This document shows positions 14,643 through 49,340 of a DNA stretch of 64,000 nucleotides, piece by piece. The position numbers were made by a program, and so were the translations under genes. Every line of letters starts with the position of its first letter. The stretch's first letter is position 1. The stretch is from Azolla caroliniana. Taxonomy: Eukaryota; Plantae; Polypodiophyta. The DNA is taken from NCBI GenBank assembly GCA_043228905.1, contig JBHGNT010000007.1, positions 2,232,001 to 2,296,000 of the forward strand, written 5' to 3'. The notes beneath the pieces were generated by a model that saw nothing but the letters and a program-made list of their open reading frames with translations, did not search any database and was not told the origin of the DNA.

Positions 14643-15377
14643 AACTCCCCCTTCACTCCGAGACGGGGTAGTTCACTAGTCTAACTCTTTGTCGGCACAC
14701 GCTCAATTTCTCTGCCAACAACACTCATGTCCGATCCATTTCCTTTCGTGTGGATCTTCATCAAACCAAAATCCTTTTCTTCCACCCTCTCATCAAGCCA
14801 GTGGTATCGTCTCTGCATGTGTTTGGTCCTCAACCGGTAGGCGGCATTCTTCGTAAGGGAATGACACTTTGGTTTTCGCAATAGATTCGGAAATCTTCTT
14901 GCTGAATCCCCAACTTTCTGATGAACTCCTTCATCTAGATTATCTCCTTGTAGGCTTCTACCATGGCCATATACTCCGCTTCCGTAGTTGATAGTGCCAC
15001 TACCTTCTGCAACCTCGATTGCCACGAGATGGCTCCCCTTGCATATGTCATTACATATTGGGATGTGGACCAACTGGTATCCACATCAGTCGACATGTCT
15101 GAGTTAGTAAAACCTTCAAGCAAAGGGTTACTTGAGCTGAATCGGAGGCACACACTAGAGGTGCCTCTTAGGTACTAGAGTATCCACTTAACTGCAACCC
15201 TAGAGTATTAGAGGCACACACTCGGCAAACGACTTCGACCGCGTATCCGATGCCCAACTTGGTACATAAGGCTTCTGGCTGAGGCACAGAGGACCTTCAT
15301 CATCAAAACCTTCTCCGTCTTTGTCTTCAGACATTGTCTCTTGGATAGCTTGTTGTTAGTTGGCAATGTTGAGCTGA

Positions 15378-15839
15378 TGTCATGATATGGCAAGACTCGA
15401 ACCCATGACCTTATGGTATATGGATCGAGCTCTTAACCATCACACCATCTATTGTAATTTGTAGGATATTATTTTCATTTATGCTTTATTATAAGAAATT
15501 AATGTATATTCCAGATTTCTCTAGAACATTCTAGAAGCTTCAGGACTACTCCTGAGAGCACTATAAAAGGAGGCACAAGGCATTGTTTTGAACCAAATTG
15601 GTTCAACGCCAGTCTTAAGCCTCTTAGCCACTTTGTACTTATCCTTCACATAATATATTAGTTGTTATCATCATCCCTCTCTCTCTCTCTCATCCTCGCT
15701 ATCTCTCTCATCCTCGCTATCTCTCTCTCCTCTTCTCTCTTTCTCTCTCGGGAATCTTACGCAGTCCCATCCTCTTAGTACTAATAGTATTTCTCTTCTT
15801 TAGTACTAATTCTCTCTCTGCTTAGTACTATTCCTGACA
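15378..15839 (+). repeat. 5' LTR of chromovirus A
   Basis: TGTCATGA..TGACA with TATAAAA at 15562. Differs from the 3' LTR by roughly a dozen substitutions plus about 24 bp of indel, counted by eye. Confidence 0.95.
15388..15447 (-). promoter_or_regulatory. tRNA-like Pol III A-box/B-box cassette in LTR A (antisense)
   Basis: Minus strand TGGTGTGATGG (A box) ... AAGGTCATGGGTTCGAGTC (B box) TTGCCA. A-to-B spacing is 44 nt. Confidence 0.65.
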
Positions 15840-15908
15840 GTTTGAACCAATTTTGGTCCTTAAGCCTACTTGTCGTTTTCCTCATCCTCCTACATTTTTC
15901 CCTATACT

Positions 15909-17066
15909 ATGGCTACTGTTAGCGCCCAAGAATATCAATCCGTTTTCTCCAAGCTACAGTGCCTAAAAGAAAAATTTGTTGCCTTGGAACAAGAAAACCA
16001 ACAACTAATAGGGGATCTGCATCAAATCGCTCTAGAAAAACAACAAACGCAGCAACAACATGGGGAGTTAGCGTTACGGGTACAACAACTTGAAGCAACA
16101 TTGCAACAACAAGGATCAAGTCCCCAAGGGTGTCATAAAGAGCCGAAGATTGGACTTCCTGTGAAATTTGATGGAATGTGATCGCAATTCAGGGGATTCC
16201 TTAATTAGGTACGATTAGTTATCCAAATGCATCCTTCCCGATACCCCACTGATGCATCCCGAGTCGGCCTAATAGGCATGTTGCTTAGCGGCTTAGCCTT
16301 ACCATGGTTCGCTCCGCTTCTAGAAAAACAATCGCCCTTGCTTGATAACTGTGAAGATTTTATTAGTGAGTTTAAAGCCTGCTTTGGAGACACCGACAAC
16401 ATCAGGACGACAATCAACAAGGTCTGATGATTGCGTCAAGGTGATCGTCCAGCCTCTGCCTACGCGGCGGATTTCCGTCTACTCGCCTCCTATATCCCCT
16501 GGGATGATCAGGCACTAATGGAGCAGTTTCGCTACAACCTGCGAAACGATGTAAAAGATTTACTTTTAACCTTCCCCGAAGAACCAAAGTCTCTTACGGA
16601 GGCAATCAGTTGAGCGGTCCGATGTGACAACCGCCTTTTCGAATGACGTTCCAAACGTCAATTACAAATACCATGCTCTAGGCCGGAGCCCACATACGCC
16701 TCAGTCGCGGCTAAATCGTTCGCACGTGACGTACCCCAAGCAAATACTCCGACACTAATGGAGATTGACACCATGCGTCGACGTGGCCCGTTATCGGAAG
16801 AAGAAAAGCAACGACGTCGTGCAAATTGATTATGTCTTTATTGAGGTGGACCAGGGCATACAACAATCAATTGTCCCCATAGGCCAAGAAGACAGGTAAA
16901 TCAAATCGTAGCCTGTAATAAACCCGAGTCAATTCTTCCCTTAGGAGTGTCTGATAGTATTCATAGTACTAATAGAGTGCCTGATAGTATTAATAGTACT
17001 AATAGCCCAAGTATCTCAAACAAATTTGAAATCCTTAGTCAATTAGATGAAGAGTTAAACGATTGA
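15909..17066 (+). pseudogene. gag: gag of chromovirus A (disrupted)
   Basis: Colinear with the intact gag of B (EPKIGLPVKFDG, HPSRYPTDASRVGL). Several in-frame stops. Confidence 0.9.
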
Positions 17067-18496
17067 GTCCAGCCAAAATAGGAGCTGTTTGGTTGGACAT
17101 TCCTAGATCTGTACAGCCCATTAGTGGTTCCATTCCCTCCAAGCAAGTTAGCAATGTGTTCCTAGCCCAAGTCATGGTTAGTACTACAAGTACTCCCCAA
17201 GTACAAGTCCTAACACTTTTAGATTTCGGAGCCAATTCCTGTTTCATGGATCGAAATTTTGCCCAAGCTTCTCAGATATCCTTAAGAAAACTTCCTTGCC
17301 CCGCATCTGTAGTAGTCATTGATGGTCATCCCATTGCTTCCGGGAATATTGTAGAAGAGTCAGAACCCATTCAGGTTGTCCTAGGTAGTTTTGTGTGTGC
17401 AGTATCATTTAATATAATTAGTAGTCCAGAGCATCCCATTATTCTGGGATTACCTTGGTTTGAACTACATAATCCATACATAGATTGGAGAACAAGAGAA
17501 GTCCGATATCGACAACCCTAAGAATCTACTCATCGAGTTTCGACCATTTCACTACATCAACTACGCGAAGAAGGACACAAGGAGGCAATGTTCCTATTTG
17601 CCATATCAGTACATCCTTCCAACAATATTAAGGAGGAATCCTTAGTGCAACTTCCGGCAAAATATCATCCTTATGCCGATGTATTTGACAAGGTAAAAGC
17701 CGGTACTCTTCCTCATCATCGTCCCTACGATTGTCCCATCGATTTACAACCAGGAGCAGAGCCACCATGGGGACCAATCTACAACTTGTTACCCACCGAG
17801 TTAGAAGTCCTTCGAGCCTACATAGAGGAGAACTTGGCAAGTGGGTTTATTCGTCATTCGTAATCTCCGGCCGGAGCACCCATCTTTTTTGTCAAGAAGA
17901 AAGATGGCTCACTTCGTCTTGTCGTTGATTACTGCGGCTTAAATAAGGTCACCATTCGGAATAGGTATGCACTTCATCTTATATCAAGTCTTTTAGAACG
18001 AGTTAATGGTGCCAAGTTTTTTACAAAAATCGATTTATGAGGAGCGTATAACCTCGTGCGGATCCGACCTGGAGATGAATGGAAGACTGCCTTTCACACG
18101 CGGTATGGGCATTTTGAATATACGGTTATGCCGTTTGGTCTAACCAATGCACCTGCAATGTTTCAACACATGGCAAATGATATCTTGGATATCTGTTTGA
18201 TCATCTATCTGGATGATCTATTGATTTATTCGAAGACCCAGGAAGAGCACGATTCTCATGTACTATTAATACTAAACCGACTCCACGAGAATGGTCTTTA
18301 TGCCAAGCTAGAAAAATGTAATTTTGACTGCAAGCAAGTGGAATTTCAAGGCTACGTTATCTCCTCAAAGGGCATCTCCATGGATCTAGCTAAAGTCCAA
18401 ACTATGCTAGCGTGGCAAATTCCACGATCAGTACGAGATGTACAATGTTTTCTAGGTTTTGCTAACTTCTACCACAAGTTTATACAGGATTACTCG
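17058..18496 (+). pseudogene. pol: pol of chromovirus A, 5' part (protease, RT)
   Basis: [38 protein letters not shown]. Stops are present and element B cuts it. Confidence 0.9.
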
Positions 18497-18940
18497 TGTC
18501 ATGAACACATGACCATTATGGCGTCACCCGGACTTGAACCTCGAACCTTGTAATCCATACTTGAAAACCTCAACCATTAAGATAGCTTATTGTTATATAA
18601 AACAATAAAAGCTACTTCTTGTATTACATTGATTATTGTAAAACCTCTAGATTATTCTAGAATGTTCTAGAATGTGCTAGAGCATTCTAGGTCTATAACA
18701 TTCTAGAACATTCTAGAAATCTCTAAGCTATTCTATAGGAACCTATAAATAAGGGCATACATGTATTCTCAAATCAATTCGAATCAACACCAGTCTTTAG
18801 CTCTCATTACATATCTTGTATCCATTCTCTTTCTTTCTGTATCTTATACATCCATTCTTCTCTTAGTATTTCATTCCTTTCTTCTCGTGTTCTCTAATAT
18901 CCTTCTTCCATCACTCTATCTTTTATCCTTGGTTCTGACA
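18497..18940 (+). repeat. 5' LTR of chromovirus B
   Basis: TGTCATGA..TGACA, repeated TTCTAGA motifs in U3, TATAAAT at 18744. Confidence 0.97.
18519..18584 (-). promoter_or_regulatory. tRNA-like Pol III A-box/B-box cassette in LTR B (antisense; also at 23830-23895)
   Basis: Minus strand TATCTTAATGG ... AAGGTTCGAGGTTCAAGTCCGGGTGACGCCA. Spacing is 44 nt and it ends in CCA. Confidence 0.6.
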
Positions 18941-18994
18941 GTTTGATTCGAATTCTCTCTCTCTCTTATCCTCCTTTGTAACCATCTTGAAACC

Positions 18995-20158
18995 ATGGCT
19001 GCCATTAACTCAGAAGAATATCTCACCCTTGTTGCAGAAATGGAGAACCTTAAATCCAAGTTCGCATCTCTTGAAGTAGAGAATCAACGTCTACTTGGGG
19101 ATCTACAAAAGGTTACTATAGAGAAGCAACAACAACAAGAGGAGTTCACGCGACGAGTGCAACAGTTAGAGTCGACAATCGTAGTGTTACAAAACCAAAG
19201 GGTTGAACGTCAGGGACTTATCAAGGAGCCCAAAATTAGCCTCCCAGCTAAATTTGATGGGTCGAGGGCGCATTTTCGAGGTTTCTTGAATCAAGTACGG
19301 TTGGTGATTCAAATGCATCCCGCGCGTTATCCAACAGATGCATCACGAGTCGGGCTAGTGGGCACCTTATTGACTGGCATAGCGTTGTCATGGTTTGCTC
19401 CATTGCTAGAGACCAATTCTCCTCTACTGAATAATTTTGAGGAATTTATCAAGGAATTTAAGGCTTGTTTCAGAGATACTGATGGGGCGAGAACAACTAT
19501 CAACAAGATTCGTACACTTCGTCAAGGTGATCAACCAGCTTCGACATATGCTGCCAATTTCCGTCTCATCGCAAGCGATATTCCTTGGGATGAACAATCC
19601 CTAATGGAGCAATTCCGTTCAGGCCTTCGTAGTGATGTCAAAGACTTACTTCTTACCTTCCCCGAGGATCCAAGGTCACTTACAGAAGCTATTAGTCGAG
19701 CAATACGGTGTGATAATCGCCTTTTTGAGCGTCGATGTGAGCGACAACAACAAATAACAAGATCAAGATTCACACCAACTTATGCATCAGTAACGGCGCA
19801 ATCATCCCCAAGGCAAATGTATAGCCCTGCTCCATCTCCAAGGCAAACACGTAGTCCAGTCCCAATGGATAGTCTTGCACCCATGGAGATCGATATGACT
19901 CAACGACGAGGACTGTTGTCAGACGAAGAGAAGCAACGTCGTCGAGCAAACCATCTATGCTTATATTGCGGAGGTCCAGGACATATAGCCCTTCATTGCT
20001 CCCGTAGGCCGAGACGTCAGGTAAATCAAATTCACTATGACAATAAAAATGAGTCCAACATTTTAGAAGTAGTTAGTGAATCTAATATTATGAATAATCC
20101 ACCCTTGTCCAATAAATTTGAAGTCCTAAGCCAATTAGAAGAGGAGTCAAACGAATAA
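18995..20158 (+). CDS. gag: Intact Gag (387 aa) of chromovirus B
   Basis: Open ORF with an N-terminal coiled coil, PAKFDGSR capsid region, PMEID motif and CCHC knuckle CLYCGGPGHIALHC. Confidence 0.92.
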   Translation: MAAINSEEYLTLVAEMENLKSKFASLEVENQRLLGDLQKVTIEKQQQQEEFTRRVQQLESTIVVLQNQRVERQGLIKEPKISLPAKFDGSRAHFRGFLNQVRLVIQMHPARYPTDASRVGLVGTLLTGIALSWFAPLLETNSPLLNNFEEFIKEFKACFRDTDGARTTINKIRTLRQGDQPASTYAANFRLIASDIPWDEQSLMEQFRSGLRSDVKDLLLTFPEDPRSLTEAISRAIRCDNRLFERRCERQQQITRSRFTPTYASVTAQSSPRQMYSPAPSPRQTRSPVPMDSLAPMEIDMTQRRGLLSDEEKQRRRANHLCLYCGGPGHIALHCSRRPRRQVNQIHYDNKNESNILEVVSESNIMNNPPLSNKFEVLSQLEEESNE

Positions 20159-23100
20159 GTTCAGCCAAAATAGGAGCCATTTGGTTGGACAACCCTAGAT
20201 ATGTATAACCTAGTGTGGGTTCCATTTCTTCCAAGCATGTCAGTAGAGTCTTCTCAGCCCTAGTACAAGTTAGGACACCCAGTTGTCAACTTCAAGTCCA
20301 AGCCCTCTTAGATACTGGAGCCAATTCTTGTTTCATGGATAGAGATTTTGCCCAAAAACACCAAATATCCTTGCATACACTTCCTTGTCCAGTTTCCGTA
20401 GTAGTGATTGATGGACGCCCCATAGCTTCCGGGAAGATATTTGAAGAGTCTGAGCCAATACACATACTCTTGGGTGATTTAGGATGTGTAGTTTCCTTTA
20501 ACATAATCCATAGTCCTGAGCATCCAATTGTCCTCGGTTTGCCATGGTTTGAGCTACATAACCCTAGAATCGATTGGAGGAAGCGAGAAATTAGGTGCCC
20601 TTTAGTGGAAAATATCGTTGTCAAGGATCGAACTCGGGATTATCCTCCTAAAGTATATAGTTCTACCGATGCACCATATCCTTCTCATCACATTTCAGCC
20701 ATCACATTGTAACAATTGTGCCAAGTGGGAGGCAAGGAGGAGCTTTTCTTATTTGCAGTATCAGTGACACCTTCTAGTGTCACTCAAGGGAATTCAGACA
20801 TCCAAATTCCCAAAAAATATCAAGACTATGCTGATGTTTTCGACAAAGTCAAAGCAAGTGTTCTTCCAAAGCATCGACCGTACGACTGTCCTATTGATCT
20901 CCAACCAGGAAAAGAGCCACCGTGGGGTCCGATTTACAATTTATCATCCACTGAGCTTGAGGTTCTTCGAGAATACATCGAGGAAAATCTTGCACATGGG
21001 TTTATTCGACATTCAAAGTCTCCAGCTGGTGCTCCTATCTTTTTTGTGATGAAAAAGGGCGGCTCCCTTCGTTTGGTCGTGGACTATCGAGGCTTAAATA
21101 AAGTCACCATAAGGAATAGGTATGCTTTACCTTTAATCTCCAATCTTTTAGAACGCATTGGTGGGGCAAAGCATTTTACCAAAATTGATCTAAGGGGTGC
21201 ATATAATCTTGTTCGAATTCGGCCGGGAGATGAGTGGAAAACAACATTTCGTACTCGGTATGGTCATTTCGAGTATACAATCATGCCTTTCGGGCTCACA
21301 AATGCACCTGCAGTATTCCAACATATGGCAAATGAAATCTTCCGGGATTTCTTGGATATTTTTCTAATCATCTACCTAGATGATCTATTGATTTACTCTA
21401 AAACATAGGGGGAGCATGATATACATGTGCGGCAAGTACTTGAACGCCTAAGGAAGTATGGTCTTTATGCCAAACTTGAGAAATGCAGTTTTGATTGCAA
21501 ACAAGTCGAATTTTTGGGATACACTATTTCATCGCAGGTTGTTTTCATGGACCCAGCAAAAGTCCAAACAATATTGGAATGGAAACCCCCATGCTCAGTT
21601 CGGGATGTCCGGTGTTTCCTCGGATTTGCGAACTTCTATCGCAAATTCATACATAATTATTCAAGCATTGTGTTGCCCCTTACTCAACTCACCAAGAAAA
21701 ATCAAGCATTTTTTTTGGAGTATCGAAGCGAACAAGGCTTTTACGCAGCTGAAAGAGGCATTCACATCAGCACCCATCCTAGCACATATTGATCCTGAAA
21801 AGCCATTTACTATTGAGGCAGATGCATCGGACTTTGCATTGGGGAGTATCCTATCGCAACCAGGCGATGACGGGCAGACACATCCAGTCACGTTTCACTC
21901 GAGAAAATTTACTGTTTCGGAGATAAACTATGAGGTGCATGACAAGGAGTTACTAGCTATGGTCAACTCATTCGAGCAATGGCGTCATTTTCTAGAAGGA
22001 TCACCTCATCAGATTATCATTTATAGTGATCACAAAAATCTCACATATTTTCAAACAGCTCGAGTATTAAATAGATGCCAAGCTCGGTGGGCCCAATTTC
22101 TAACACGTTTCGATTTCAAGATCATTTTTCGCCCCGGAAAACAACAAGGGAAAGCAGATGCTTTGTCTCGGCGTTCGTATCTAGCACTTTGACCTGGAGA
22201 TCCGGCCTTTGACAATCAAAAGCAAATTCTCCTTGAGCCATCAAAGCTACAGGTAATAACAATTTATGCCACGCCACTTGATTCTACCCTTCTTGACACT
22301 ATTCGGCAACAACCTCATTCAGATGATTTTGCTAAGGATGTCTTAGCCCACTGTGGTTCAAGTCATCCATCTTGCTCCACATTGCCAGGGTCATCTCAAC
22401 ATTATCAAGACTTCAAGTGGCAAGATGGCTTACTCTTCTACAAGAATCTCCTTTACGTCCCCGACGGATCACCCCGACTTCAAGTGTTGGAACATTGTCA
22501 TGATGCCCCCATGGCTGGACATTTTGGTATTTCCAAGACCATTGAGTTGGTGAAACATTCGTTTTGGTGGCCTCACTTGCAAAAATTTGTCGAAGATTAT
22601 GTTCGCACTTGTGACACTTGCTGTCGCGCCAAAATACCTCGGCATCACCCTTATGGCTTACTACAACCATTACCCCCTCCCAACAAGCCATGGCAGTCTA
22701 TTTCTATGGATTTCATTACGGATCTGCCACCTTCCAAAGTCTTTGATACTATTTTAACAGTAGTGGATCGGTTCACCAAGATGGCACATTTTGTACCATG
22801 TGTAAAGACCATCAATAGTGAAGAAACTGCAGATCTCATTATGCGTGAAGTGTTTCGCCATCATGGTCTCCCGAATGATATTATTATCGATCGAGGTCCT
22901 CAATTTATCTCACAATTTTGGAAGCACCTATGGGCAGGCCTCAAAATCTCTTGCAAACTCTCTTCGGCTTATCATCCCCAAACTGACAGACAAACAGAGC
23001 GCACAAATCAAACGCTCGAGCAATATCTTCGATGTTACATTAGTTATCAACAAGATGATTGGAGTAATATTTTACATCTTGCCGAGTTTGCATACAACAA

Positions 23101-23770
23101 CACGGTCCACTCTTCTACCAAAGTTACACCTTTCGTTGCCTACATTGGCAACCACCCTCGATGGTGTATACTGGATCTTCCCGAGGTGTCACGAAACCCT
23201 AGTGCGGTGCATCACCTCCACCGACTACAACAAATCCAGTTCAAGTTATCGTCACATCTTCAGAAAGCGCAAGCACACCATAAGACCAATGCCGCTCGAC
23301 ATCGTCTTAAGTCTCCGTTTAAGGTTGGTGACCGTGTATGGTTGCTTCGTCGTCACATCAAGACTACCCGACCGTGTGCTAAGCTTGACTATCAACGCTT
23401 AGGTCCTTTTGTCATCACGACGCAAATTAATGATGCAACATTTCGTCTTAACCTTCCTACACATATGCAGCTTCACCTTGTCTTTCATAGCTCTCTTTTG
23501 GAACCTTGCCGCACCTCTTTAATTCCTAATCGTGTCGTGCCACCACCGCCTTCTGTACAACTTGTGGACGGCCCCGAATACGAGGTAGTTGCTATTCTTG
23601 ATTCTAAAATTGTGCGCAATAAGCTTTATTATCTAGTTGATTGGCTTGGCTATCCTCCGAGTGATCGCACTTGGGAACCCATTGATAACGTGATAACGTT
23701 TGTAATGTTGAAGCTCTGGTCAACGACTTCCATTGTCACTATCCAAACAAGCCCGGCCCAACAATGTTAA
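20150..23770 (+). pseudogene. pol: pol of chromovirus B (PR, RT, RH, INT, chromodomain), disrupted
   Basis: LLDTGA, YLDD, EADASD, HHCC zinc finger, DDE core, GPF motif and chromodomain. Stops near 20206, 20710, 21406 and 22190. Frameshifts at the poly-T near 21710 and near 23690. Confidence 0.92.
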
Positions 23771-23807
23771 CGCCGACTTCCACTCGGCGTTCTCGAAGGA
23801 GGGATAG

Positions 23808-24251
23808 TGTCATGAACACATGACCATTATGGCGTCACCCGGACTTGAACCTCGAACCTTGTAATCCATACTTGAAAACCTCAACCATTAAGATAGCTTA
23901 TTGTTATATAAAACAATAAAAGCTACTTCTTGTATTACATTGATTATTGTAAAACCTCTAGATTATTCTAGAATGTTCTAGAATGTGCTAGAGCATTCTA
24001 GGTCTATAACATTCTAGAACATTCTAGAAATCTCTAAGCTATTCTATAGGAACCTATAAATAAGGGCATACATGTATTCTCAAATCAATTCGAATCAACA
24101 CCAGTCTTTAGCTCTCATTACATATCTTGTATCCATTCTCTTTCTTTCTGTATCTTATACATCCATTCTTCTCTTAGTATTTCATTCCTTTCTTCTCGTG
24201 TTCTCTAATATCCTTCTTCCATCACTCTATCTTTTATCCTTGGTTCTGACA
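23808..24251 (+). repeat. 3' LTR of chromovirus B
   Basis: Matches 18497-18940. Confidence 0.97.
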
Positions 24252-24256
24252 ACTCG

Positions 24257-26362
24257 AAGATTATTTTACCTCTCACACAACTTACGAAGAAGGGACAAAC
24301 ATTTCTTTGGTCCAATGAAGCGGACATGGCTTTTCGGCATCTTAAGAAAGCCTTTACATCAGCACCTATTCTAGCTCATGTGGATACAAGCAAACCATTC
24401 ATCATGGAGGCCGACGCATTAGATTTCGCCCTCGGTAGCATCCTTTCTCAACAAGGAGATAAAGAAGAGTTACATCATGTGGCTTTCCATTCGCGCAAAT
24501 TTGATGCTGCGGAAATCAACTACGAAATACATGACAAGGAGTTATTAGCCATCATGGATTCATTTGTGCAATGGCAGCATTTTTTGGAGGGCTCTCCACA
24601 TCAGGTCATCGTCTTCAGTGATCACAAGAATCTTTCTTATTTCCAGAACGCTCGTGTGCTAAATCGACGGCAAGCTAGGTGGGCTCAATTCCTCACACGT
24701 TTTGATTTCAAAATCGCATATCGACCGAGGAAGCAGCAAGGAAAGGAAGATGCACTATCATGACGTTCTTATCTTGCACCTCGTCCTGGTGATCCAGCAT
24801 TCGACAATCAAAAGCTAGTAATCTTGAAACCAACACGATTACACACAACGCGGATTTTTCACACCCCAATGGATTCCCAAATTACCGACACCATACGTGC
24901 AAACTTGAAGACGGACAATTTTGCTCAATACATTCTAGCGCACATTGATACCTCTCGGACATCCTGTTCCCAGTCTCAACAACCAGGTATGGACTATCGA
25001 CAGTTCGAATATCGTGATTGTTTGTTGTTCTTTAAAAAGCTTGTATATGTCCTCGATTGCTCCTGTCACCTTCAAATCGTCCAAACTTGTCACAACACCC
25101 ATATGGCGGGACATTTCGGTAGCACTAAGACGTTGGATTTAGTTCAACGATCCTTTTGGTAGCCCCATATGCGACGTTTTGTCAACAACTACGTTCGGAC
25201 CTGTGATGCTTGCTGCCGAGCAAAGATGCCACGACACCATCCATATGGCTTGTGGAACCCTTACCGATTCCAAGTAAGCCGTGGCAGTCTATTTGTCTTG
25301 ACTTTATCATAGATGTGCCGGTCTCGAAGGGGTTCGATGCTATCTTATCCGTCATCAATCGATATACGAAGATGGCACATTTTGTGCCGTGTACTAAGGC
25401 CATCACTAGCGAGGAAACCGCCGCCCTTGTCATGTGTGAGGTGTTTCGGCATCATGACCTCCCAAACAGTATCATTAGTGACCAAGGACCGCAATTCGTC
25501 TCCAAATTTTGGCAGCATCTCTTCAAGATGCTCAAGGTCTCTTGCAACCTCTTCTCCGGCTACCATCCTCAAACCGATGGGCAGGCGGAACAAACAAACC
25601 AAACGCTGGAGCAATATCTCCGGTGTTTCCTGAGTTATCAATAGGACGATTGGGCCGAGATTCTCCACTTTGTGGAGTTTGCGTATAATAATGTTGTTCA
25701 CTCCTCGACTCGAGTCTCCCCATTCTACGTTTATACCGGTTCTCATCCTCGCTGGTCGGTGATCAACACCCCGGAGCTACCTACCAATCCTCGTGCCGAG
25801 GATAATTTGGAGAGACTACACAAGATCCAGATGGATCTCTCTACTCATCTTCGTCATGGTCAACAGACATAGAAGACTTACGCGGATCTTCATAGGCTTC
25901 CCTCCTCTTTGGCCATCAGAGATCGAGTATGGCTTTTACGTTGTCACATCAAGACTACTCGATCGTGCGACAAGTTGGATTATCGACGATGTCACGTTCC
26001 GCCTTGATCTTCCTCCGCATCTTCAGGTACATCCGGTCTTCCATAGTTCTCTTCTTGAACCTTATAAAGCAAACACTATTCCCAATTGTGTTACACCACC
26101 ACCGCCCCTGCTTGAGTTAGACGCCGACCCGGAGTATGAAGTTGCTGCCATCCTCAACTCCAAATTTGTTTGCAACAAACTTTATTATTTGGTCGATTGG
26201 CTCGACTATAGTCTGAGCGAACGTACTTGGGAGCCCGTCGAGCATGTCGGCAATTCTAAAGATCTTCTTGCTGATTTTCACTCACAGTATCCCAACAAAC
26301 CAGGTCCTCAATCAGCATCGACTCGTTCCACTCGTTGTCTTAAAGGGGGGATAGTGTCATGA
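24257..26362 (+). pseudogene. pol: pol of chromovirus A, 3' part (RH, INT, chromodomain)
   Basis: FTSAPILAH, EIHDKELLAI, PWQSICLDFI, YHPQTDGQAE and a chromodomain, with stops and frameshifts. Confidence 0.9.
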
Positions 26363-26792
26363 TATGGCAAAACTCGACCCCATGACCTTATGGTATATGG
26401 GTCGAGCTCTTAACCATCACACCATCTATTGTAATTTGTAGGATATTATTTTCATTTATGCTTTATTATAAGAAATTAATGTATATTCCAAATTTCTCTG
26501 GAACATTCTAGAAGCTTCAGGACTACTCCTGAGAGCACTATAAAAGGAGGCACAAGGCATTGTTTTGAACCAAATTGGTTCAACGCCAATCTTAAGCCTC
26601 TTAGCCACTTTGTACTTACCCTTCACATAATATATTAGATGTTATCATCATTCCTCTCTCTCATCCTCGCTATATCTCTTTCCTCTTCTCTCTTTCTCTC
26701 TCGGGAATCTTATGCAGTCCCGTCCTCTTAGTACTAATAGTACTTCTCTTCTTTAGTACTAATTCTCTCTCTGCTTAGTACTATTCCTGACA
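26355..26792 (+). repeat. 3' LTR of chromovirus A
   Basis: Matches 15378-15839 and is followed by the TSD. Confidence 0.95.
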
Positions 26793-26851
26793 GCTGATAT
26801 TTCTTGATACATTCTAGAGTCTTCTTCGTCTTTGTCTTTGGACATTGTCTC

Positions 26852-27334: not shown

Positions 27335-28552
27335 ATATCCTTCATTGAGAAAGATCTGTTCAAGGACTTTTTCAACATTCCGATTTTCATTTAGTCCCAT
27401 CCGACAATCGACATGTTGTCCATGTCCAACAAGAGGACGAGAAAGTTTCCTTTGTTGAACTTCTTCACAAACAAGCAATGATCGTCCTGCGTTTTGTGAT
27501 ACCCTTGGTCAGTCATGAAGGATTTGAACTTCCGGTACCATTGTCGAGGAGCTTGATTGAGTCCGTAAAGGCTCTTCCTCAACCGGCATACCAAGTTCTC
27601 CTTCCCCTTCTCGACGAATCCTTGTGGTTGCTGCATATATATCTCCTCTTCAAGATCACCATGCAGAAAAGCCGTATTGACTTCCAACTACTCGACTTCA
27701 AGGTCCATATTGGTTGCTATGCTCAACACCGTCCGAATGGATGTCATCTTCATCACTGCGGAAAAGATCTCGTTGAAATCCACACCTTTCTTTGGTTAGC
27801 AGGCCTTCACCACAATGTGGGCCTTATCCCTTGGTGGATTTCCGCCATCTCCCGGTTTTAGTTTATACACCCACTTATTCCAGAGTGCCCTCTTTCCTTT
27901 CAACAACTCTGTTAGCTCGTATGTGTGGTTCTCATGTAGGGAACCAATCCATTTCGTCTTTCATGACACTTAGCCATTCTCTGCTACGGGTTTCCCTCCT
28001 TGCTTCCTTGAAGCTTTTTGGCTCCCCCTCGTCAGTTAGTAGCATGTACTCTTTATCTGGATATCTTTTGGGGGCCCTTCTTTTCGTCAGAGGGTATCTC
28101 CTTCCTCTATTCTCATAAGTCGTCTCACTAGGTCCTTCCTCTTCTCTTTTGGCTGGAACGTTGTCCGATTTAGAGTCGACTACTTCTTCCTCTTCGGATC
28201 CGACAAGATACCTTCCGATCAATTCGGCTCCATATTCGGATGCCGACTGGTTTTTGTCTGATCCGACTCCCTATCCGGATTTGGTCGGCTCACCTTGTTC
28301 TTCAATCGACATTCGACTTCTGACTGGTTGGGAGGATGTATTCGACTTCTCCATCTCCTAGTCAACAATAGTCTTCTCATGCATGAAGACTATGTCTTGG
28401 TTCAAGATCACTTTCTTCTTGGCTAAGTTCCATAGCCTATCGTATCCCAGGAATATGCACGACCAATTCTTTGGGTCCAAATTTCCCCTCTGGTACTTTG
28501 CTACATGAACATAGGCAAGAAAACCAAACACCCTCAGATGTCGGTACAACAT

Positions 28553-31500
28553 TGTTGGGAAATTGGTCCCTCCGGATGGGATCCGGTGATGAATAAAGAG
28601 GACCCGGTGAGAACCGGAAGAGATCCGGAAACCGGAGGAGACCTAGTGAGAATCGGAAGAGAGCCGATGAGAACTGGAAGAGAGAACATATCTGTAAATA
28701 TGATTTGAGTAAGCCTATTGAGGCTATATTTGTAAATAGCCCTAAACCCTAAACCCTAAATATGACTTAGGGCAATCACTTTGTGTGGTTATATTGTTGT
28801 TGTTGTCATATTGTTGTACAAAGAGAGAGAGAGAGAGAGCGCGATACTCTGTTGTAACCGCCATTTGGCGAAGATACAAAGCTCGAGGTCGTTGCCTCTG
28901 AGGTTCTGACTGTACCTTTCTCCTATAGTGATAGTTGGAGTCCGTGGGCTCCCGTGGTTTTTCCCATGTAGGTTTTTCCACGTAAACATCCTGTGTATTT
29001 CCTTTGTGTACTCTCCACTTCCCATTTCTGTGTTTCATTCTCAGTGAAGCGATTCAAGACTCGGTTGTGGCCGAGCAATATTCCAAGTTCTTCTCTTCAA
29101 TATGGTATTAGAGCGAACGACATAGGAAATGGAAGAATCGTTCGGTGGCATGTTCAAGCTCATCGGCTCCAACTACTCAATGTGCAAGTTGAAGATGAGG
29201 GGCATGCTAGTGGTTAAAGATATTTGGTTTCTGGTTTAGTTCGGGGACCAGAGACTGGGTAAGATCAACGCCACAGTGTGGGAGGTGATGCACATGAAGA
29301 CAACGGCCTACATCCGGTGCTTCATCGACATGAGCATGTACAACAACTTCAATGAAGAGAGCAAGGCTCATGCACTCTGGGAGAAGATCGACAACATGTT
29401 CCAGAACAAGAATGTTGTTAATCGGGTTTTGGCATTCCGGAAGCAAGTGAGGCTTCGGTACCAGGACGACTCCAGTATGGCAGAGCACATGAATGCCTTC
29501 CAGGGACTAATCCACCAGGCAACCTCGTTGGAAGTACCTCTTGCCGATGAGGTACTCGCATTACTCCTGCTCGGTTCCCTCCCAGATAGTTGGGAGATGC
29601 TAGTTGTCACGTTGGGCAACGCCGGACCGGAAGGAAAGTAGTTGTCCCTAGCAAGGGTAAAATAAAGCCCTGTAGATGAAGAAGCTTGCTGGAAGGACCA
29701 GGAGTTCGGAACCAATCCGAAGGCCTTGGTCACAAAAGATGACCACAACCGAGGAAGAGGCCGATATCGGAGTCCCCAAAACCGGGACAAGTCGGGGACG
29801 AGGTCGAAGTCAAGGGGAGGCCTACTTGCTTCTACTGTGGGAAGCCGGGGCATTTCTAGAAGAACTGTCAGCATTTCCGGAAAGAGAAAGAAACCAGCAC
29901 CACCGATTCGAAGAAGAGTTCGGACCGGAACGGCGGCGATCGTGACAAGTGAAGAAGAACTGATGCTCATTACTGAAGCGAATGAGTTAAACCTTGTCGA
30001 TGACGAGACAATGTGAGTTGTCGATTCCGGAGCGTCGTTCCACCTAAAACTGGACCAGAGATGCTTCTCATCCTACACAGCTGGTGATCATGGTTGTGTC
30101 CAAATGGGGAATGAAGGCACATGCCGAATTGTCGGCATAGGAGATGTGTTGTTGACGACATCAACCGTATGCAAGTTGTTGTTGAAGGATGTTCGACACG
30201 TTCCGGAGGTTCAATTGAACTTGATATTAGCTGGTCGGCTAGATGATGAAGGTTACACGGGTAGCATCCAGAACGGAGTCATGAAGTTCTACAAAGGGAG
30301 CCTAATAGTGGTTCAAGCCCGGAAGGTCAACACACTGTACTTGATGAATGCTCGGATATGCTGGGAAGAAGTGAACGTAGCATCCGACACTGCTGGTGAG
30401 CTATGGCACAAAAGACTGTGTCACATGAGTGAGAAGGGGATGAAGAGGCTTGCCAAAGACAATCTTATTCCGGTGAAGGACATGCAACTTGAGAAGTGCA
30501 CCAACTGCTTGGCCGACAAGCAAAACCGAACCTCCTTCCAGTCAAGAACACCGATGAGACGGAATGCACCACTGGAGCTGGTGCATACCGATATGTGTCA
30601 AGTGGACACAAAGTCACATGCCGGATCACAATACTTCGTGACATTCATAGACAACCACAGTCGGAAGCTGTGGGTCTCACCGTTGAAGACGAAGGATCAG
30701 GTGTTATCCATCTTCAAGGAAATCCACGCAAGAGTGGAAAGAGAAACCGGTCGGAAGTTGAAGGCGTTTCGAGTGGACAATGGAGGAGAATACCGGGGGC
30801 AGTTTGAGGAGTACTGCTGGTCGAAGGGAATCTAGCTCGAATTTATCGTGCCAAAGACACCGGAATTGAACGGGCTGGCCAAAAGGATGAACTAGAGCAT
30901 AATGGAGAGAGTCCGGAGCATGCTCACACATGACAAGTTACCCAAGACGTTTTGGGTTGAGGCGCTAACGACGGTGACCTATGTGATAAACAAATCACCC
31001 TCAATACCCTTGGGAGGAGACTCACATCAGAAGGTATGGACCGTTAAAGATGTATCTTATTGGCATCTGAAGGTGTTCGGTGTCTCGCATACACGCATGT
31101 GGCGAAGGACAAGAGAGCAAAGCTAGATCTGAAGTCCCAACCATGCATATTCCTTGGATACGGCAATGATGAGTTCGATTACCAGGTGTGGGATCTAGTC
31201 GACAAGAAGGTGTTCCGGAGTCAGGACATAATCTTCATGGAAGACATGACCATTGCTGACTGAGAGTCGGAGAAGAAGATGATCAACTCCGGATCATCCA
31301 ATGAAAACCGGCTTGAGGACACAAGAACCTACCCGCTTGAAAACCGGATGTTAGTCGGTAACCGGATGACACTCGACGAACCGGCCAGATACGGACAGGA
31401 AATCGAACCGACCGAAGAAGAAGAAGAAGACACCGGAACTAGACAAGATCCCGAATCGGATTCAGATTCGGAACAAACGAAGGAGTCGGTAGTCAGAAAC

Positions 31501-33441
31501 CAAGGACGAAGATATCCTCTTCGGGAGAGAAGAACCCCCCGGAGATTTCCGGATGTAGAGCATGTGTTGCTAACCGATGAGGGGGAGCCGGAAAGCTTCG
31601 AAGAAGCAAAGAGAGACAGCCACAGTCGTAGTGGTTGAGTGCCATGCAAGACGATATGGATTCCCTGCATGAGAACCACACGTATGAACTGACGGAGTTG
31701 CCGAAAGGGAAGAGAGCACTCCGGATCAAGTGGGTGTACAAGCTAAAACCGGGAGATGCCGGAAATCCACCAAGGTACAAAGCCCAGATCGTGGTGAAGG
31801 GCTTCCAACAGAAGAGAGGAGTGGACTTCGATGAGATCTCTGCCCCGGAAGTAAAGATGACATCCATCCGGACGGTATTGGGCATAGCGGCAAGCATGGA
31901 CCTCGAGCTCGAGCAACTGGACGTCAAGACGACATTCCTGCATGGTGACTTCGAAGAAGAGATCTACATGCATCAACCGGAACGATTTGAGAAGAAAGGG
32001 AAGGAGCACCTGGTGTGCCGGCTGAAGAAGAGTTTATATGGACTGAAGCAAGCTCCCCGACAATGGTACCGGAAGTTCGACTCCCTCATGATCGACCAAG
32101 GGTACCACAAAACGCAAGTTGATCACTGTTTGACGGAGGAGATTTCTTGATACTCCTCCTGTATGTGGATGATATGTTGATCGTCAAATGAGACCAAGGC
32201 AAGATTCGGATGCTGAAGAAGGCTCTGAACCAAACCTTCTCAATTAAAGACTTGGGACCAGCAAGACAGATATTGGGAATGCACATCATCCGGGACCGGT
32301 CGAAGAAGTTGTTGTGGTTGTCACAGGATAAGTATGTGACGAAGGTGCTTCAACGGTTCAATATGTCGGAGGCAAAGCCGGTCGGATCGACACTTCCAGC
32401 AAACTGCAAGCCATCCGGAAAACAAATCTCGAGGATAAAGGCGGAGAAGACGGATATGATGAAGATTCCATATGCCTCTGGCGTCGGAAGCTTGATGTAC
32501 GCGATGGTATGTACCCGGCCGGATATCGGATATGTAGTCGGAGTGGTGAGCCGGTTCATGTGCAATCCCGGAAGAGAACATTGGAACGCGGTCAAGTGGA
32601 TACTCCGGTATCTGAAAGGCACCTCGAGTATGTGCCTCCAGTTTGGTTCCGGAAATCGCCAACTTGATGGATTCACGGATTCGGATATGTCGGCTGATGC
32701 GGATACCAACCGGTCTACATCCGGATATGTCATGACTTATGTAAGGGGAGTTGTTTCGTGGCAGTCGAGGGTGCAGAAGACGGTTGCGTTGTCAACCACG
32801 AAGGCAGAGTACATGGCAGTTGTTGAAGCCGGCAAGGAGATAATCTAGAATCTAGATGAAGGACTTCATCGGAGAGCTAGGGATCCAATAGGAGGAATAT
32901 TGGCTCTACTGTGACCATCAAAGTGCCATCCACCTTGCAAAGAATGCGGCCTACCATTCCCGGACGAAACATATCCAACGGAGGTACCATTGGATCCGGG
33001 AGAGAGTAGAAGATCAAGAGGCCGTGTTGGCGAAGATCCACACGAAGGAGAACGGGTCGGACATGTTGACCAAGGTCCTGACAACTGACAAGTTGGACGT
33101 GTGCCAAAAGAGGATCAGGCTGACAAGACATCCCATGACGGAGTGAAGGGGGAGATTATTGGGAAATCGGTCCCTTCAGATGGGATCCGGTGATGAGTAA
33201 AGAGGACCCGGTGAGAATCGGAAGAGAGCCAGTGAGAATCGGAAGAGAGCCAGTGAGAATCGGTAGAGAAGACATATCTATAAATATGTTTTGAGTAAGC
33301 CTATTCAGGCTATATTTGTAAATAGCCCTAAGTTCATATAAGTATAAATATGACTTAGGGCAATCACTTTGTGTGGTTATATTGTTGTTGTTGTCATATT
33401 GTTGTACAGAGAGAGTGATAGAGAGAGCCATAGAGAGAGAG

Positions 33442-33472
<31 letters not shown>

Positions 33473-33737
33473 TACAGAGCGATACTCTGTTGTAATCCCC
33501 AGTTGGCGAAGATATAGAGCTCGAGGTCGTTGCCTCCGAGGCTCTAATTGTACCTTTCCCCTATAGTGATAGTTGGAGTCCGTGGGCTCCTGGGGTTTTT
33601 CCCATTTAATGTTTTCCACGTAAACATCCTGTGTATTTCCTTTGTGTACTCTCCACTTCCTATTTCTGTGTTTATTTCTCAGTGAAGCGATTCAAGACTC
33701 GGTTGTGGCCGAGCAATATTCTGCGTTCTTCTCTTCA
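28553..33737 (+). mobile_element. Ty1/copia element D (Tnt1/Tork-like), full length, pseudogenised, nested in H
   Basis: TSD AACAT/GACAT. LTRs 28553-29099 and 33157-33737. PBS TGGTATTAGAGC (iMet-like) at 29103. PPT at 33145-33156. Order is gag, PR (VDSGAS), INT, RT (YVDD), RH. Removing it restores the host reading MSYRHLRVFG. Confidence 0.93.
29129..33146 (+). pseudogene. gag-pol polyprotein of copia D (disrupted)
   Basis: LLLLGSLPDSWE, LWHKRLCHMSEKG, QLDVKTTFLHGD, SLYGLKQAPRQWY, ALSTTKAEY. Multiple stops and frameshifts. Confidence 0.9.
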
Positions 33738-44631: not shown

Positions 44632-47600
44632 TGTAAAGAGAATAGCGTGCGGAAGCAATAGAAAACCGAACACAGAAACGCAGGTTTAATGGAGAGCTTC
44701 AATATACACAGTACGTGGGAGAGAGAGAGAGAGAGAGAGAATTCACACAAACTCAATTCAAAAAATAATACTCAGTCTATACATAGGATGTGCTCAATGA
44801 GCACTTTTATACAAGTCCATACGGACTGATAGAAGTACTGACACGTACTTCAATGCTCATAAGTGAGCTCTACGCTAACTCCCAAAATATATTCCTACGC
44901 GGAATATCTTTCCAACGGCCTCGCAGTTTACGCACCGCTACGGCTTCTCGTTGCGCACCGGTCTACACACCAATTTACGCACCGGTCCGGCCTAACCAAT
45001 CGATCCCAACCGATCCGATTCTCGGCTTGCACAACCGATCCGGCCAATGTTGAGCTTGTATCTCAACACTCCCCCTCAAGCTCAACTTGAGGTTCCATCC
45101 GCTCTTCCGGATCTACGCTCCGGTTCCTTCTGGCTTCACGCCTTGCTCGCGCTCCTCGACCTGTTCGATTCCGCGCACCTCAACCCTTCCGGTCGGCTTG
45201 CGTGCTCGTGCGGCCCTTCTCAGCTCCATTGTTGTCGCGGTGTTGGCGCTTCTTCTGCTGCCTTCTCTTCCACTTGGCTCTTAGTTGATTCGGCGTATCC
45301 GAATCAAACATCCGAACAGACTCGGCTTCCTCCGATCGGTTTTAGCTTTCGTCCAAGTTGGCTATCTCCAACTCGTCTTCAGTCTTCTCGCCCTTGATGG
45401 CTTCGTCTCCCACATGCTTGGTTGGCTTCGACTCTTTCTTTCAGCTGCTGCCCTCACGTTCGCTTTTGGACTCTTCTGCGGATCCGCCCTCGGTTTCTTC
45501 AACCGATCCAAAGTCGAATTCATCATTCGACTCGGTGTCATGGTCTTTTCCACTCTTTTCATGCTCCCTTCCGTGGTCATCTGGGACGTCTCTCCCCCTC
45601 AAGTTCGGCACGTCGAGGTGACGCAACCCAAGCGCACCCAAGAATTGCAGTAACTTGTCCAGACCAAGAGGCTTGGTGAAGATGTCGGCGGACTGCTGAA
45701 CCGTCGGAACATACTGAAGTTCGACTTCACCGGAGAGGACACGCTCACGAAAGAAATGGTAGTGCACCTCAATGTGCTTAGTCCGGGCATGGAAGACGGG
45801 GTTCTTTGCTAGCTGGATGTTGCGGAGGTTGTCCTAGTAGATTGTCGTTGGATCGGATACCTCCACCTGTAGATCCTTAAGTAGCTACTTCAACCATATG
45901 GCTTCGCATGTCGTGACAGCCGCTCCTCTATACTCGGCTTCGATGCTCGACAACGCAACTGTCGGCAGCTTCTTGCTACTCCACGCAATCGCGGCACTCC
46001 CAAGAGAGAACGCGAAGCCGTACGTGGATCGTCGATCGGCGACGTTGCCGGCCCAATCGGCATCAGTGTAGCCGACCAACTAGATGGTTGTACTGGTTCG
46101 ATATAGTAGTTCCCGGTCCTTAGTGCCGCTTACATACCGCAATACGCGTTGCGCACACTGAAGGTGCTCCTCAATAGGTCGCACCATGAACTGACTAATC
46201 ACCCCGACCGGGTAATTGAGATCTGGTCGGGTGATGGTCAAGTATATAAGGCATCCGACTATCTGTCGGAACCTCATCGGTCACATACCTTTCCAGAATC
46301 GGGGCGAAGCTTGACGGTTCTATTGAGAGTCGAGACGGACTTACACTCAGCCATCCCGAATTTGAAGAGCATACTCAGCACATAATGTCGTTGGCTGATC
46401 AGAATGCCTTCGGGGGTACGGATCACTTCGATCCCGAGGAAGTAATGAAGGTTCCCCAAATCGTTCATGTCAAATGATAGTGCGAGCTGGAGCTTTACGC
46501 AGTTAATTTCACCTAGGTCGGCGTCGGTGATGACCAAGTCATCAACATAAAGTGAAATACTAACCGGCCCGAGTCGACCTTTCCAGATGAATAGTGCGGA
46601 GTCCGATTTTGATGTTGCAAAACCCATCCGACACAATTGTTGTGTGACCTTCTTCAACCGGCACACCGCCGAAGTGTTCGTTCCGGAGTGAAATCCGGGG
46701 GGTTGTACCATGTACACCTGTTCCTCAAGCTCACCTTGCAAGAACGCATTCTTTACATCCATCTGATGTAAGTGCCACCCCTTCGCTGCAACTATTGCGA
46801 GCAAAGCGCAGACGGTCGTCATCTTCGCGACCGGTGCAAACATCTCATCGTCGTCGATGTCGTGTTGTTGTGCGTAGTCTTTCGCTACTAACCGGGCCTT
46901 GTATCAGTTGACCGAATTGTCGGTGTTGTACTTGACCTTGTACACCCACCTACATCCGATCAGCTTCACACCTTTCGGTGCATCAACCAGGTCCCAGGTT
47001 TCATTTTCCGCCAATGCACGCACCTCTTCCTCCATTACGGCACACCAATTCGCGTCCTTCACTGCTTCTGCGTAGCTCTCTGGCCCACGCACTTCTGTTA
47101 CACGGGTCATGTACGCATAGTGATGCGCCATGTACTCATTGTATCTGAACCGCACAACAGGGTTCTTCTAGCAGGTAGATCGGCGTAATTGCTCATTAGC
47201 CGATGTTGAGGCTTTCTTGGCCGACACAAACTTCGCTCTTGAAGACCCGTCATCACTTCCCTTGGAGTCGGACTCACGTCGATCCGACTCGTTCCTATCC
47301 GTGTCGTAATCCGACACCTTCTTCTTCCCTTTTTCCTTGCGCGTAAGCCATCTCCTCGGCTTCCTGCGCGAGGAATGCACGACCGAGTCTCCACTACTCG
47401 CCGGCTCTTCTTTGGATTGGGCAAACCGACTCAGTCGTCCATTTGGTCCACTTAACCGAAACGAGATCGGACTCTCTTCGAGGGTCCCGATTTCACCCTC
47501 ATCTGGAGGCACTTCAGCCTCGTTGACCTCATTGTCAGAACTCGGATTGAAGTTGAGGTTCGGAGTCGGAGGCAAGTACCAGGACGCGGACTCGTCAAAC

Positions 47601-49340
47601 ACAACGTCGCGGCTCACACAAGCTTGTTTGGTTCGGGGGTATAGCACTTCTAACCCTTATGTTCGTCCGAATAGCCGACTAGGATACACTTCTTAGTTTT
47701 CGTGTCCAGCTTCCTTCACTTCTCCTTCGATACATACACATACGCAATGCTACTGAAAACTCTCAAGTGTCGTAGATTCGGCTTCCTTCCAACATACAGC
47801 TCATGCACCGAAACTTTTTCTCCGATCCGATTCCGGATGTACACCACGGTCCGTACCGCCTCGACCCAATAGAACTTGGACAAGCTCTTTTCTTCCAACA
47901 TTACCCGCGCCGCTTCTACAATCGACCGATTCTTCCTTTCAGCCACGCCGTTTTGGTCCGGCGTATATCTACAACTGAATTCGCGTCGAATTCCCCGATG
48001 TTGCAAATACCCGTTGAATTGACCGGAAAAGTACTCTTTTCCGCCATCCGACCATAGGCACTTGATCTTTCTTCCTATTTCCCTTTCGACGAAACTCTTG
48101 AGGTCCCAGAAACAGTCGAAGACTTCACTCTTCTTCTCAATGAGGTAGATCCACGTGTGCCGCGTATAGTCATCGATGAAGGAGACGAAATATCGACTCC
48201 CGCCAATACTAACGTTCTGTGCCGGCCCCCATAAATCGGAATGTATCAAGTCGAGCTTGTTCCGGCTCCGGTTACGCTCGTTAGGGAAAGGAAGTCGGTG
48301 TTGCTTCCCTAGTTGGCAGGCTTCACAAATTTGTGCCTTTCGGCCACTAAATTTGGGCAATCCGAACACCATCTGTTTCGATTGCAGGTCCTAAAGCCGT
48401 TGATAGTTGACGTGGCCTATCCGCTTGTGCCATAAGTCGATATCCAACTCAACTTTTTGTCCTTTCGTGAACATTGCGGTGCCACCATCACTAGAGTCAA
48501 GGATAAACATCCTCCCGTCTCTACGCCCTTGCGCAATAACTCGGCCTTCTTCCTCGATGAAGCACCCGAGATGCGTAAACCGAACCTGCATCCCCTGGTC
48601 AACAATCTATCCGACCGACACCAGGTTATTCGTGATTGTTGGAACGTGTAACACGTTCATGAGTTTCCCTTTCTGCCCGACATGGCTCAGGGGAACTTCA
48701 TATACTTTCGTGATGGGATGCGGAGTGTCGTCTCCGGTTGCGATTACTCCCGATTGCATCAGTTTCTCAAGGTATGAGAACCACTCCTTGTGGCACGTCA
48801 TGTGGTTTGATGCGCCGGAGTCGACGTACCACACCTCGTCTAATTTCGGGGTGGACTTCTTCATTGAGTTCGCTCGTGTTTTGTCACGAAGGCTGACCCT
48901 TTTTCGGCTTTTCCGAATCCTTCAACGTAGTGCGATCGTTGCCGATTACCTTTGTCGGTTTGTCCGGAACCTGATCCGGATCCGGTCCTCTCCGAATCGG
49001 CGCGCTTCTTCCAGCACTCGCTCTCCTTGTGGCCTTTCTTGGCACAGTACCAACATTCCGCGGCGGATTTCCCTTGTCGGTTCTCGTCGCCTCCATTACC
49101 CCTATTTCCGGAGGGTCCGGAATTGCTGTCGGCATCACTTCGGTGCCTTCTTCCTTGATCCCGTCGGCCGCCTCCATTGCGCACCAACTCGCCTCATCCA
49201 CCACGACCACGGGGCCTCTCTCCCTCTGTGTACAACATCTTGTTGTGGGCATGCGTGCTCGTCGACGCACCCGCGTGGTTCTCCTCTATAAGGAGCATCA
49301 ATTGTATGCTAGTTGGAAAGAGGAGGTTGACGACCTCCTA
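44632..49340 (-). mobile_element. Ty1/copia element E, 5'-truncated and pseudogenised
   Basis: 3' LTR at 45068-44632 with PPT TGAGGGGGAG. Knuckle [77 protein letters not shown]. No 5' LTR was found. Confidence 0.92.

Follow-up and report, generated by a model that had tools for sequence, protein, structure and literature searches.

The two nested Ty3/gypsy chromoviruses, A and B, of the window (the whole stretch of 64,000 nucleotides that was analysed), B having inserted into the RT gene of A, in all likelihood prime their own reverse transcription in a Tf1-like manner: transcription would start at a 12-mer that would pair with the PBS, be cut off by RNase H after base 12, act as the primer and eventually be re-copied into the PBS. 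As self-priming is known from Tf1 and has been predicted for plant Tcn1 elements, the mechanism per se is not new; what is new is the genomic evidence that it operates, i.e., a noisy junction next to the PBS, chimeric insertions joined at the PBS, and the positions at which the LTR parts of these chimeras begin.

Pfam finds gag, PR, RT, RH, IN, SH3_Tf2-1 and Chromo in A and B, which is the Ty3/gypsy domain order with a C-terminal chromodomain, and the parts of the two elements are laid out as follows.

15378-15839, plus strand: A 5' LTR (TG..CA), TSD GCTGA at 15373-15377 and 26793-26797
15562-15569, plus strand: A TATA box
15588-15594, plus strand: A U3 arm, an inverted copy of part of the primer that could be folded onto it
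15595-15606, plus strand: A predicted self-primer (RNA bases 1-12), start between C and A at TATA+33
15607-15614, plus strand: A conserved flank past the predicted cut, taking part in a second, weak duplex with the U5 end
15842-15853, plus strand: A PBS, 2 nt past the LTR, exact complement of 15595-15606
15854-15859, plus strand: A hypervariable junction directly 3' of the PBS
15860-26354, plus strand: A internal region (broken gag, PR, RT, RH, IN, chromodomain), with B inside
26342-26354, plus strand: A PPT
26355-26792, plus strand: A 3' LTR
18497-18940, plus strand: B 5' LTR, TSD ACTCG at 18492-18496 and 24252-24256
18744-18751, plus strand: B TATA box
18776-18787, plus strand: B predicted self-primer, start between C and A at TATA+32
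18788-18795, plus strand: B conserved flank past the predicted cut, pairing with the U5 end
18943-18954, plus strand: B PBS, exact complement of 18776-18787
18995-20158, plus strand: B gag, open, 387 aa
20209-23770, plus strand: B pol (PR, RT, RH, IN, SH3, chromodomain), with stops and a frameshift
about 23579-23695, plus strand: B chromodomain with Y/W/Y cage residues
23795-23807, plus strand: B PPT
23808-24251, plus strand: B 3' LTR, 100% identical to the 5' LTR

The LTRs of A are 91.8% identical to each other, the spacer between the LTR end and the PBS is 2 nt long (GT) in both elements, and the total length is 5,755 bp for B and about 5,655 bp for A without B, with gag and pol frames that overlap by about 25 nt in open sister copies. 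When aligned to HP1 family structures, the chromodomain of B turns out to have retained Y, W and Y at positions which we take to be those of the aromatic cage. As B has identical LTRs, yet stops and a frameshift in pol, its parent was probably already defective and the copying done in trans. The U3 of B also holds a palindromic repeat hairpin (18656-18717) with a weak MIR4378 match that is far below the gathering score. Elsewhere in the window there are two Ty1/copia remnants (28551-33737 and 46274-48390), minus-strand exons with a WKKY variant motif (53652-55172), presumably of a WRKY transcription factor, and a single-exon membrane protein, also on the minus strand (60454-62010), whose best named relatives come from Adiantum and Ceratopteris, which places the host, with some probability, among the ferns.

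The complementarity from which the earlier note had set out is exact in both elements, as 15842-15853 is the reverse complement of 15595-15606 and 18943-18954 that of 18776-18787, both matches ending at these bases without any extension; the 12-mers do start at +33 (A, TATA at 15562) and +32 (B, TATA at 18744), counted from the first T of TATA, and a TGG-type tRNA PBS is indeed missing from A and B alike, the GT spacer being followed by the PBS with no TGG. As a control for chance, a false LTR end was shifted through the internal region of each element, and at none of the 407 positions for either did this yield a 12-nt LTR complement, the best complements being 11 nt (A) and 10 nt (B). In the sequence of events proposed here, Pol II would start at the 12-mer (predicted start at TATA+32/33, between C and A), the 5' end of the RNA would fold onto the PBS, helped by a duplex between R and U5, the RNase H of the element would cut the RNA after base 12, the freed 12-nt piece would prime minus-strand DNA, and the primer would later be copied into the daughter PBS, together with untemplated or cap-templated extra bases. 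The start is predicted from the TATA+32/33 spacing and the C/A step, the cut from where the chimeras begin, and RNase H is the putative cutter by analogy with Tf1. The C/A step and the TATA spacing of the predicted start are consistent with the YR rule and the TATA placement given for plant transcription starts in the available part of PMC1832190.

The pairing was followed through 290 loci (the best 30 genome matches of A and of B each, 120 of 150 gag-anchored places, 30 further-family copies and 80 metagenome loci). LTR-pair calling failed or misplaced the ends in many of the 120 loci, so anchors (TATA, the conserved flank, the LTR end and, as a loose PBS anchor, the first PBS letters) were used instead; these placed 218 of the 290 loci and left 72 unplaced, and with four duplicates set aside there were 214 distinct relatives. 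The covariation across family members that the earlier note had proposed to look for is present: the primer/PBS match is perfect in 162 of the 214, has one mismatch in 41 and more in 11, and the perfect relatives sort into 12 types, each 11 or 12 bases long, which vary at 8 of 11 positions and always keep the pairing. The mismatches in the 52 other copies are probably post-insertion decay. Among the best 30 genome matches of each element, the full match is kept in 22 (B) and 21 (A). The perfectly complementary 11-12-mer of the relatives lies about 32-33 nt after TATA, a spacing partly set by the anchors, and C/A is found at the predicted start in 207 of 214, a count which the anchors likewise partly set; TGG occurs near the LTR end in a single one of the 214. 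In an anchor-free scan of the 55 metagenome loci with enough upstream DNA, 34 had their best complement between TATA+31 and TATA+35, 10 gave scattered matches and 11 gave nothing.

At the T/C site of the A-type relatives (n = 105), 73 are T-A, 26 are C-G and 6 are discordant, i.e., the PBS follows the change in R in 99 cases, and the two types interleave on the gag tree, with four changes needed, some of them one-sided. If the PBS is re-copied from the primer in every cycle, covariation requires one mutation and a templated correction instead of two compensating mutations, and what it reveals is the identity of the priming RNA and not selection for paired changes. The compensatory covariation claimed in the earlier note stands as far as the pairing across the 12 primer variants goes, but the apparent compensation is probably re-templating, a mechanical consequence of primer copying, and not paired mutation. 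In five copies (L047, L057, L113, L140 and L177), an identical one-base slip of the PBS is seen on separate branches, with no matching change in the primer, as if it had been made anew while the primer was being copied.

The first of the genomic footprints lies directly 3' of the PBS, where six bases form the most variable window (rank 1 of about 1,100) in each of three sets. There are 6 junction haplotypes in 12 copies of one very young subfamily (99.6% gag identity), 16 in 30 copies of another (99.4%) and 21 in 30 copies of A, and the PBS proper is nearly fixed where the adjoining junction varies; in B, a (CT)n run confounds the signal. A tRNA-Met-primed control family, found and aligned in the same way, has 2 haplotypes in 30 copies and a junction that ranks 473 of 1,093, this tRNA-primed control being one family only. 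For Tf1, the available part of PMC11042837 describes the copying of the PBS onto the cDNA's 3' terminus and the addition of untemplated bases by RT, with which a noisy junction is consistent. We infer that every cycle writes the PBS anew from the primer, whose 5' end is marked by the junction; re-copying of the primer with untemplated or cap-templated extra bases would explain the noise of the junction and the apparent compensation at once. In normal copies, the PBS ends at the predicted start site.

The second footprint was met at 77 sites that have GG after an A-type PBS. Of the 60 examined, 31 go on into U3 in reverse complement, 23 turned out to be normal LTRs bearing short extensions, and 6 are unclassified. 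Long PBS extensions were accordingly discarded as evidence of an upstream start, given the 31 chimeras and 23 normal LTRs with short extensions among the 60 sites, and with short extensions (G or GG), an upstream start and fold-back look the same. Four loci (L490, L500, L511 and L514) have unclassified sequence after the PBS and are perhaps chimeras of a further family. Genome-wide, the exact chimera pattern occurs at 29 A-type and 29 B-type sites, the reversed-pattern control at none. In the chimeras, U5-PBS is joined to inverted U3 exactly at the primer/PBS match, so that the opposite strand reads U3, primer and then antisense U5, and the inverted U3 reaches base 1 of the element in 10 of the 10 longer loci for A and in 3 of the 4 for B, running on into the PPT and internal sequence in L531. 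Integrated U5-spacer-PBS-inverted U3 chimeras with scrambled internal pieces were seen at L461-L534 and L147. A whole chimera of about 1.7 kb, L528, is the only one with both ends in view and has a perfect 5-bp TSD, which indicates that it integrated as a unit. Such molecules may have come from a strand extended from the last base of the primer at the PBS, or from a plus-strand PBS tail landing on the R primer, and on both routes the two 12-mers must pair with each other while reverse transcription is under way; DNA-level switching across the 12-nt inverted match could be the source of some.

The chimeras also bear on where the template ended. Among 30 distinct A-type chimeras, 3 carry the LTR back through the primer into U3, and of the remaining 27, 8 have an LTR part that begins at +11 to +18, none has one that begins at +1 to +10, and 19 have one that begins further into R/U5, a pile-up with p of about 2e-4 against a uniform spread, after correction for the choice of window and with begin positions that microhomology blurs by a few bases. 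The four B chimeras begin at +17 (one), later (two) and at -10 (one, which runs into the PPT). As a template cut after base 12 predicts a pile-up at +11 to +18 and an uncut one a pile-up at +1, the chimeras point, if indirectly, to a template 5' end near +13 and a putative cut after base 12.

It is highly unlikely that in the normal route it is the 3' R copy of the 12-mer, and not the RNA 5' end, that is cleaved and primes. Priming by the 3' copy would give just the U3-primer-antisense U5 order of the chimeras, and the running on of L531 into the PPT and internal sequence fits it too, but the chimeras amount to tens of sites as against thousands of initial candidates for normal copies, the PBS of which ends at the predicted start site; a template end near +13 speaks against that route as well, and in several families the 3' copy can be masked by the U3 arm. 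This inverted primer copy in U3, located between TATA and the primer (15588-15606 in A, primer included), is strong in all 8 C/D-type representatives with an eleven-base primer, at -17 to -21 kcal/mol (L096, L123, L292, L293, L296, L301, L306 and L308), follows a one-base primer change in L293, is moderate in A and is absent in B and L291; it could serve to hide the 3' primer copy. A local palindrome of U3 arm and primer was rejected as the origin of the primer/PBS match, as it is absent in B and several relatives and is left uncompensated in the T/C variant.

Among 27 representatives, the predicted mean pair probability of the primer-PBS helix is 0.86-0.97, and a second duplex, between R just 3' of the primer and the U5 end, exceeds shuffled controls in most; this R-U5 duplex has 8-9 pairs in the 11-base families and is weak in A of the window (p 0.23). 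A crude duplex test did not detect the third (post-PBS) duplex of the "pretzel" described for Tf1, with p<=0.05 in 3 of the 27. That last result lends something to the notion that the pairing is structural only, serving packaging or dimerisation, with some unknown host RNA as the primer, which is nevertheless hard to credit: the chimera joints fall exactly at the primer 3' end and the PBS 5' end, and for the 12 variants there would have to be 12 host RNAs, each identical to the R of the element itself.

As for tRNAs, the earlier note had pointed to a tRNA-like cassette in the LTRs, and antisense A-box/B-box-like motifs, presumably of the Pol III type, do lie at the 5' end of both (15378-15452 and 18497-18585, minus strand), but ARAGORN called no tRNA on these cassettes and neither did Rfam to E=5; with no tRNA call and no match to the PBS, the cassette was rejected as a primer. 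A tRNA search of the genome gave 58,716 initial candidates, perhaps these very LTRs. The comparison of the PBS with host tRNAs that had been suggested gave a longest match of 7 nt among 22 tRNA genes (an incomplete set of 9 anticodon types with no Met). Least likely of all is priming by a tRNA fragment whose end lies in the T loop, for which the T-loop-like 7-mer at the end of the A primer, the 7-nt match of A-type primers to a host tRNA and the incompleteness of the tRNA set could be cited, since the other variants, B included, match tRNAs by 0-6 nt, the PBS follows one-base R changes in 99 of 105, and such a fragment would not yield a template end at +13. A T-arm-like hairpin of the A primer and its flank was discarded too, its pairing being broken by the C variant and the hairpin being absent in B. 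Self-priming as in Tf1, which the earlier note had inferred for A and B, is supported by the 12 paired variants, the lack of a tRNA-type PBS, the grouping on the tree (see below), and the junction and chimera footprints.

Experiments have shown self-priming in fission yeast; for plant elements, the portions of the sources available give it as a prediction only, from a 10-12-base match. Independent evidence from the genome that it runs in a plant, and of where the RNA would be cut, comes from the noisy PBS junction and the inverted-U3 chimeras, both of which can be scored in any assembled genome. A literature search outside the primary Tf1 and sushi papers and preprint supplements found no report of junction or chimera evidence, and one outside the per-element table of PMC6317226 found none of fern members. 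A further reading, which we put forward tentatively and as somewhat less probable than not, is that the chimeras record a failure mode: because the primer sequence also sits in the U3-R of the other LTR copy, wrong-copy priming or second-strand transfer would leave U3-primer-antisense-U5 fossils that map start and cut in any Tf1/sushi-group host, the covarying U3 arm of several families would have evolved to hide the second primer copy, and a fern host would widen the plant range beyond mosses and lycophytes. A fern host would also be relevant to the proposal that the group was passed from fungi to plants.

On an RT-RH tree (quick IQ-TREE, 55 rows, midpoint root, hosts by database labels, none of the rows being a named Tf1, sushi or Tcn1), A and B, together with the sister families, fall among sequences of fungi and vertebrates and separate from those of seed plants and of Closterium, an alga (SH-aLRT 100), which is the position of the Tf1/sushi group; A and B are likely candidates for the Tcn1 clade of REXdb. 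The earlier note had the self-priming proposal extend to the Tf1/sushi group, and while the mechanism is supported, the same has already been in print for plant Tcn1 elements: self-priming was predicted, by the same test, for 83% of 1,500 of these (Neumann 2019, PMC6317226, available part). The plant Tcn1 clade is reported only in mosses and club-mosses in the available parts of PMC6317226 and PMC2864245, and, in that of the latter (Novikova et al. 2010), no priming signal was found in SM-Tcn1 and the clade is not reported from the 26 ferns and horsetails surveyed by PCR.

Compared with the plant Tcn1 elements, as described in the available part of PMC6317226, A and B share the predicted self-priming, the 5-bp TSD, the aromatic-cage chromodomain and the overlapping gag/pol frames, and their size (5.6-5.8 kb) is within the Tcn1 reference range of 5.5-9.4 kb, whereas the host here is probably a fern and there is evidence from covariation, junction and chimeras. 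With Tf1/Tf2 (Schizosaccharomyces pombe), Tj1, Tosmo1-3 and Tcry1, the shared feature is an R 5' end complementary to a PBS just past the LTR (PMC7175516, PMC4600332 and PMC5341516, available parts), and the flanking R-U5 duplex is Tf1-like as well (bioRxiv 10.1101/2022.12.06.519325, available part). The primer is 12 nt long in A and B, 11 nt in the sister families and, in the sources available, 11 in Tf1. The third pretzel duplex, described for Tf1 and several members (available part of the same preprint), was not detected here, whereas some families here have the extra U3 arm, and the present elements are known from sequence alone. Plant elements with a self-complementary PBS and predicted self-priming likewise make up the Ty1/copia TAR lineage (PMC6317226, available part), which is of another superfamily and of unrelated origin.
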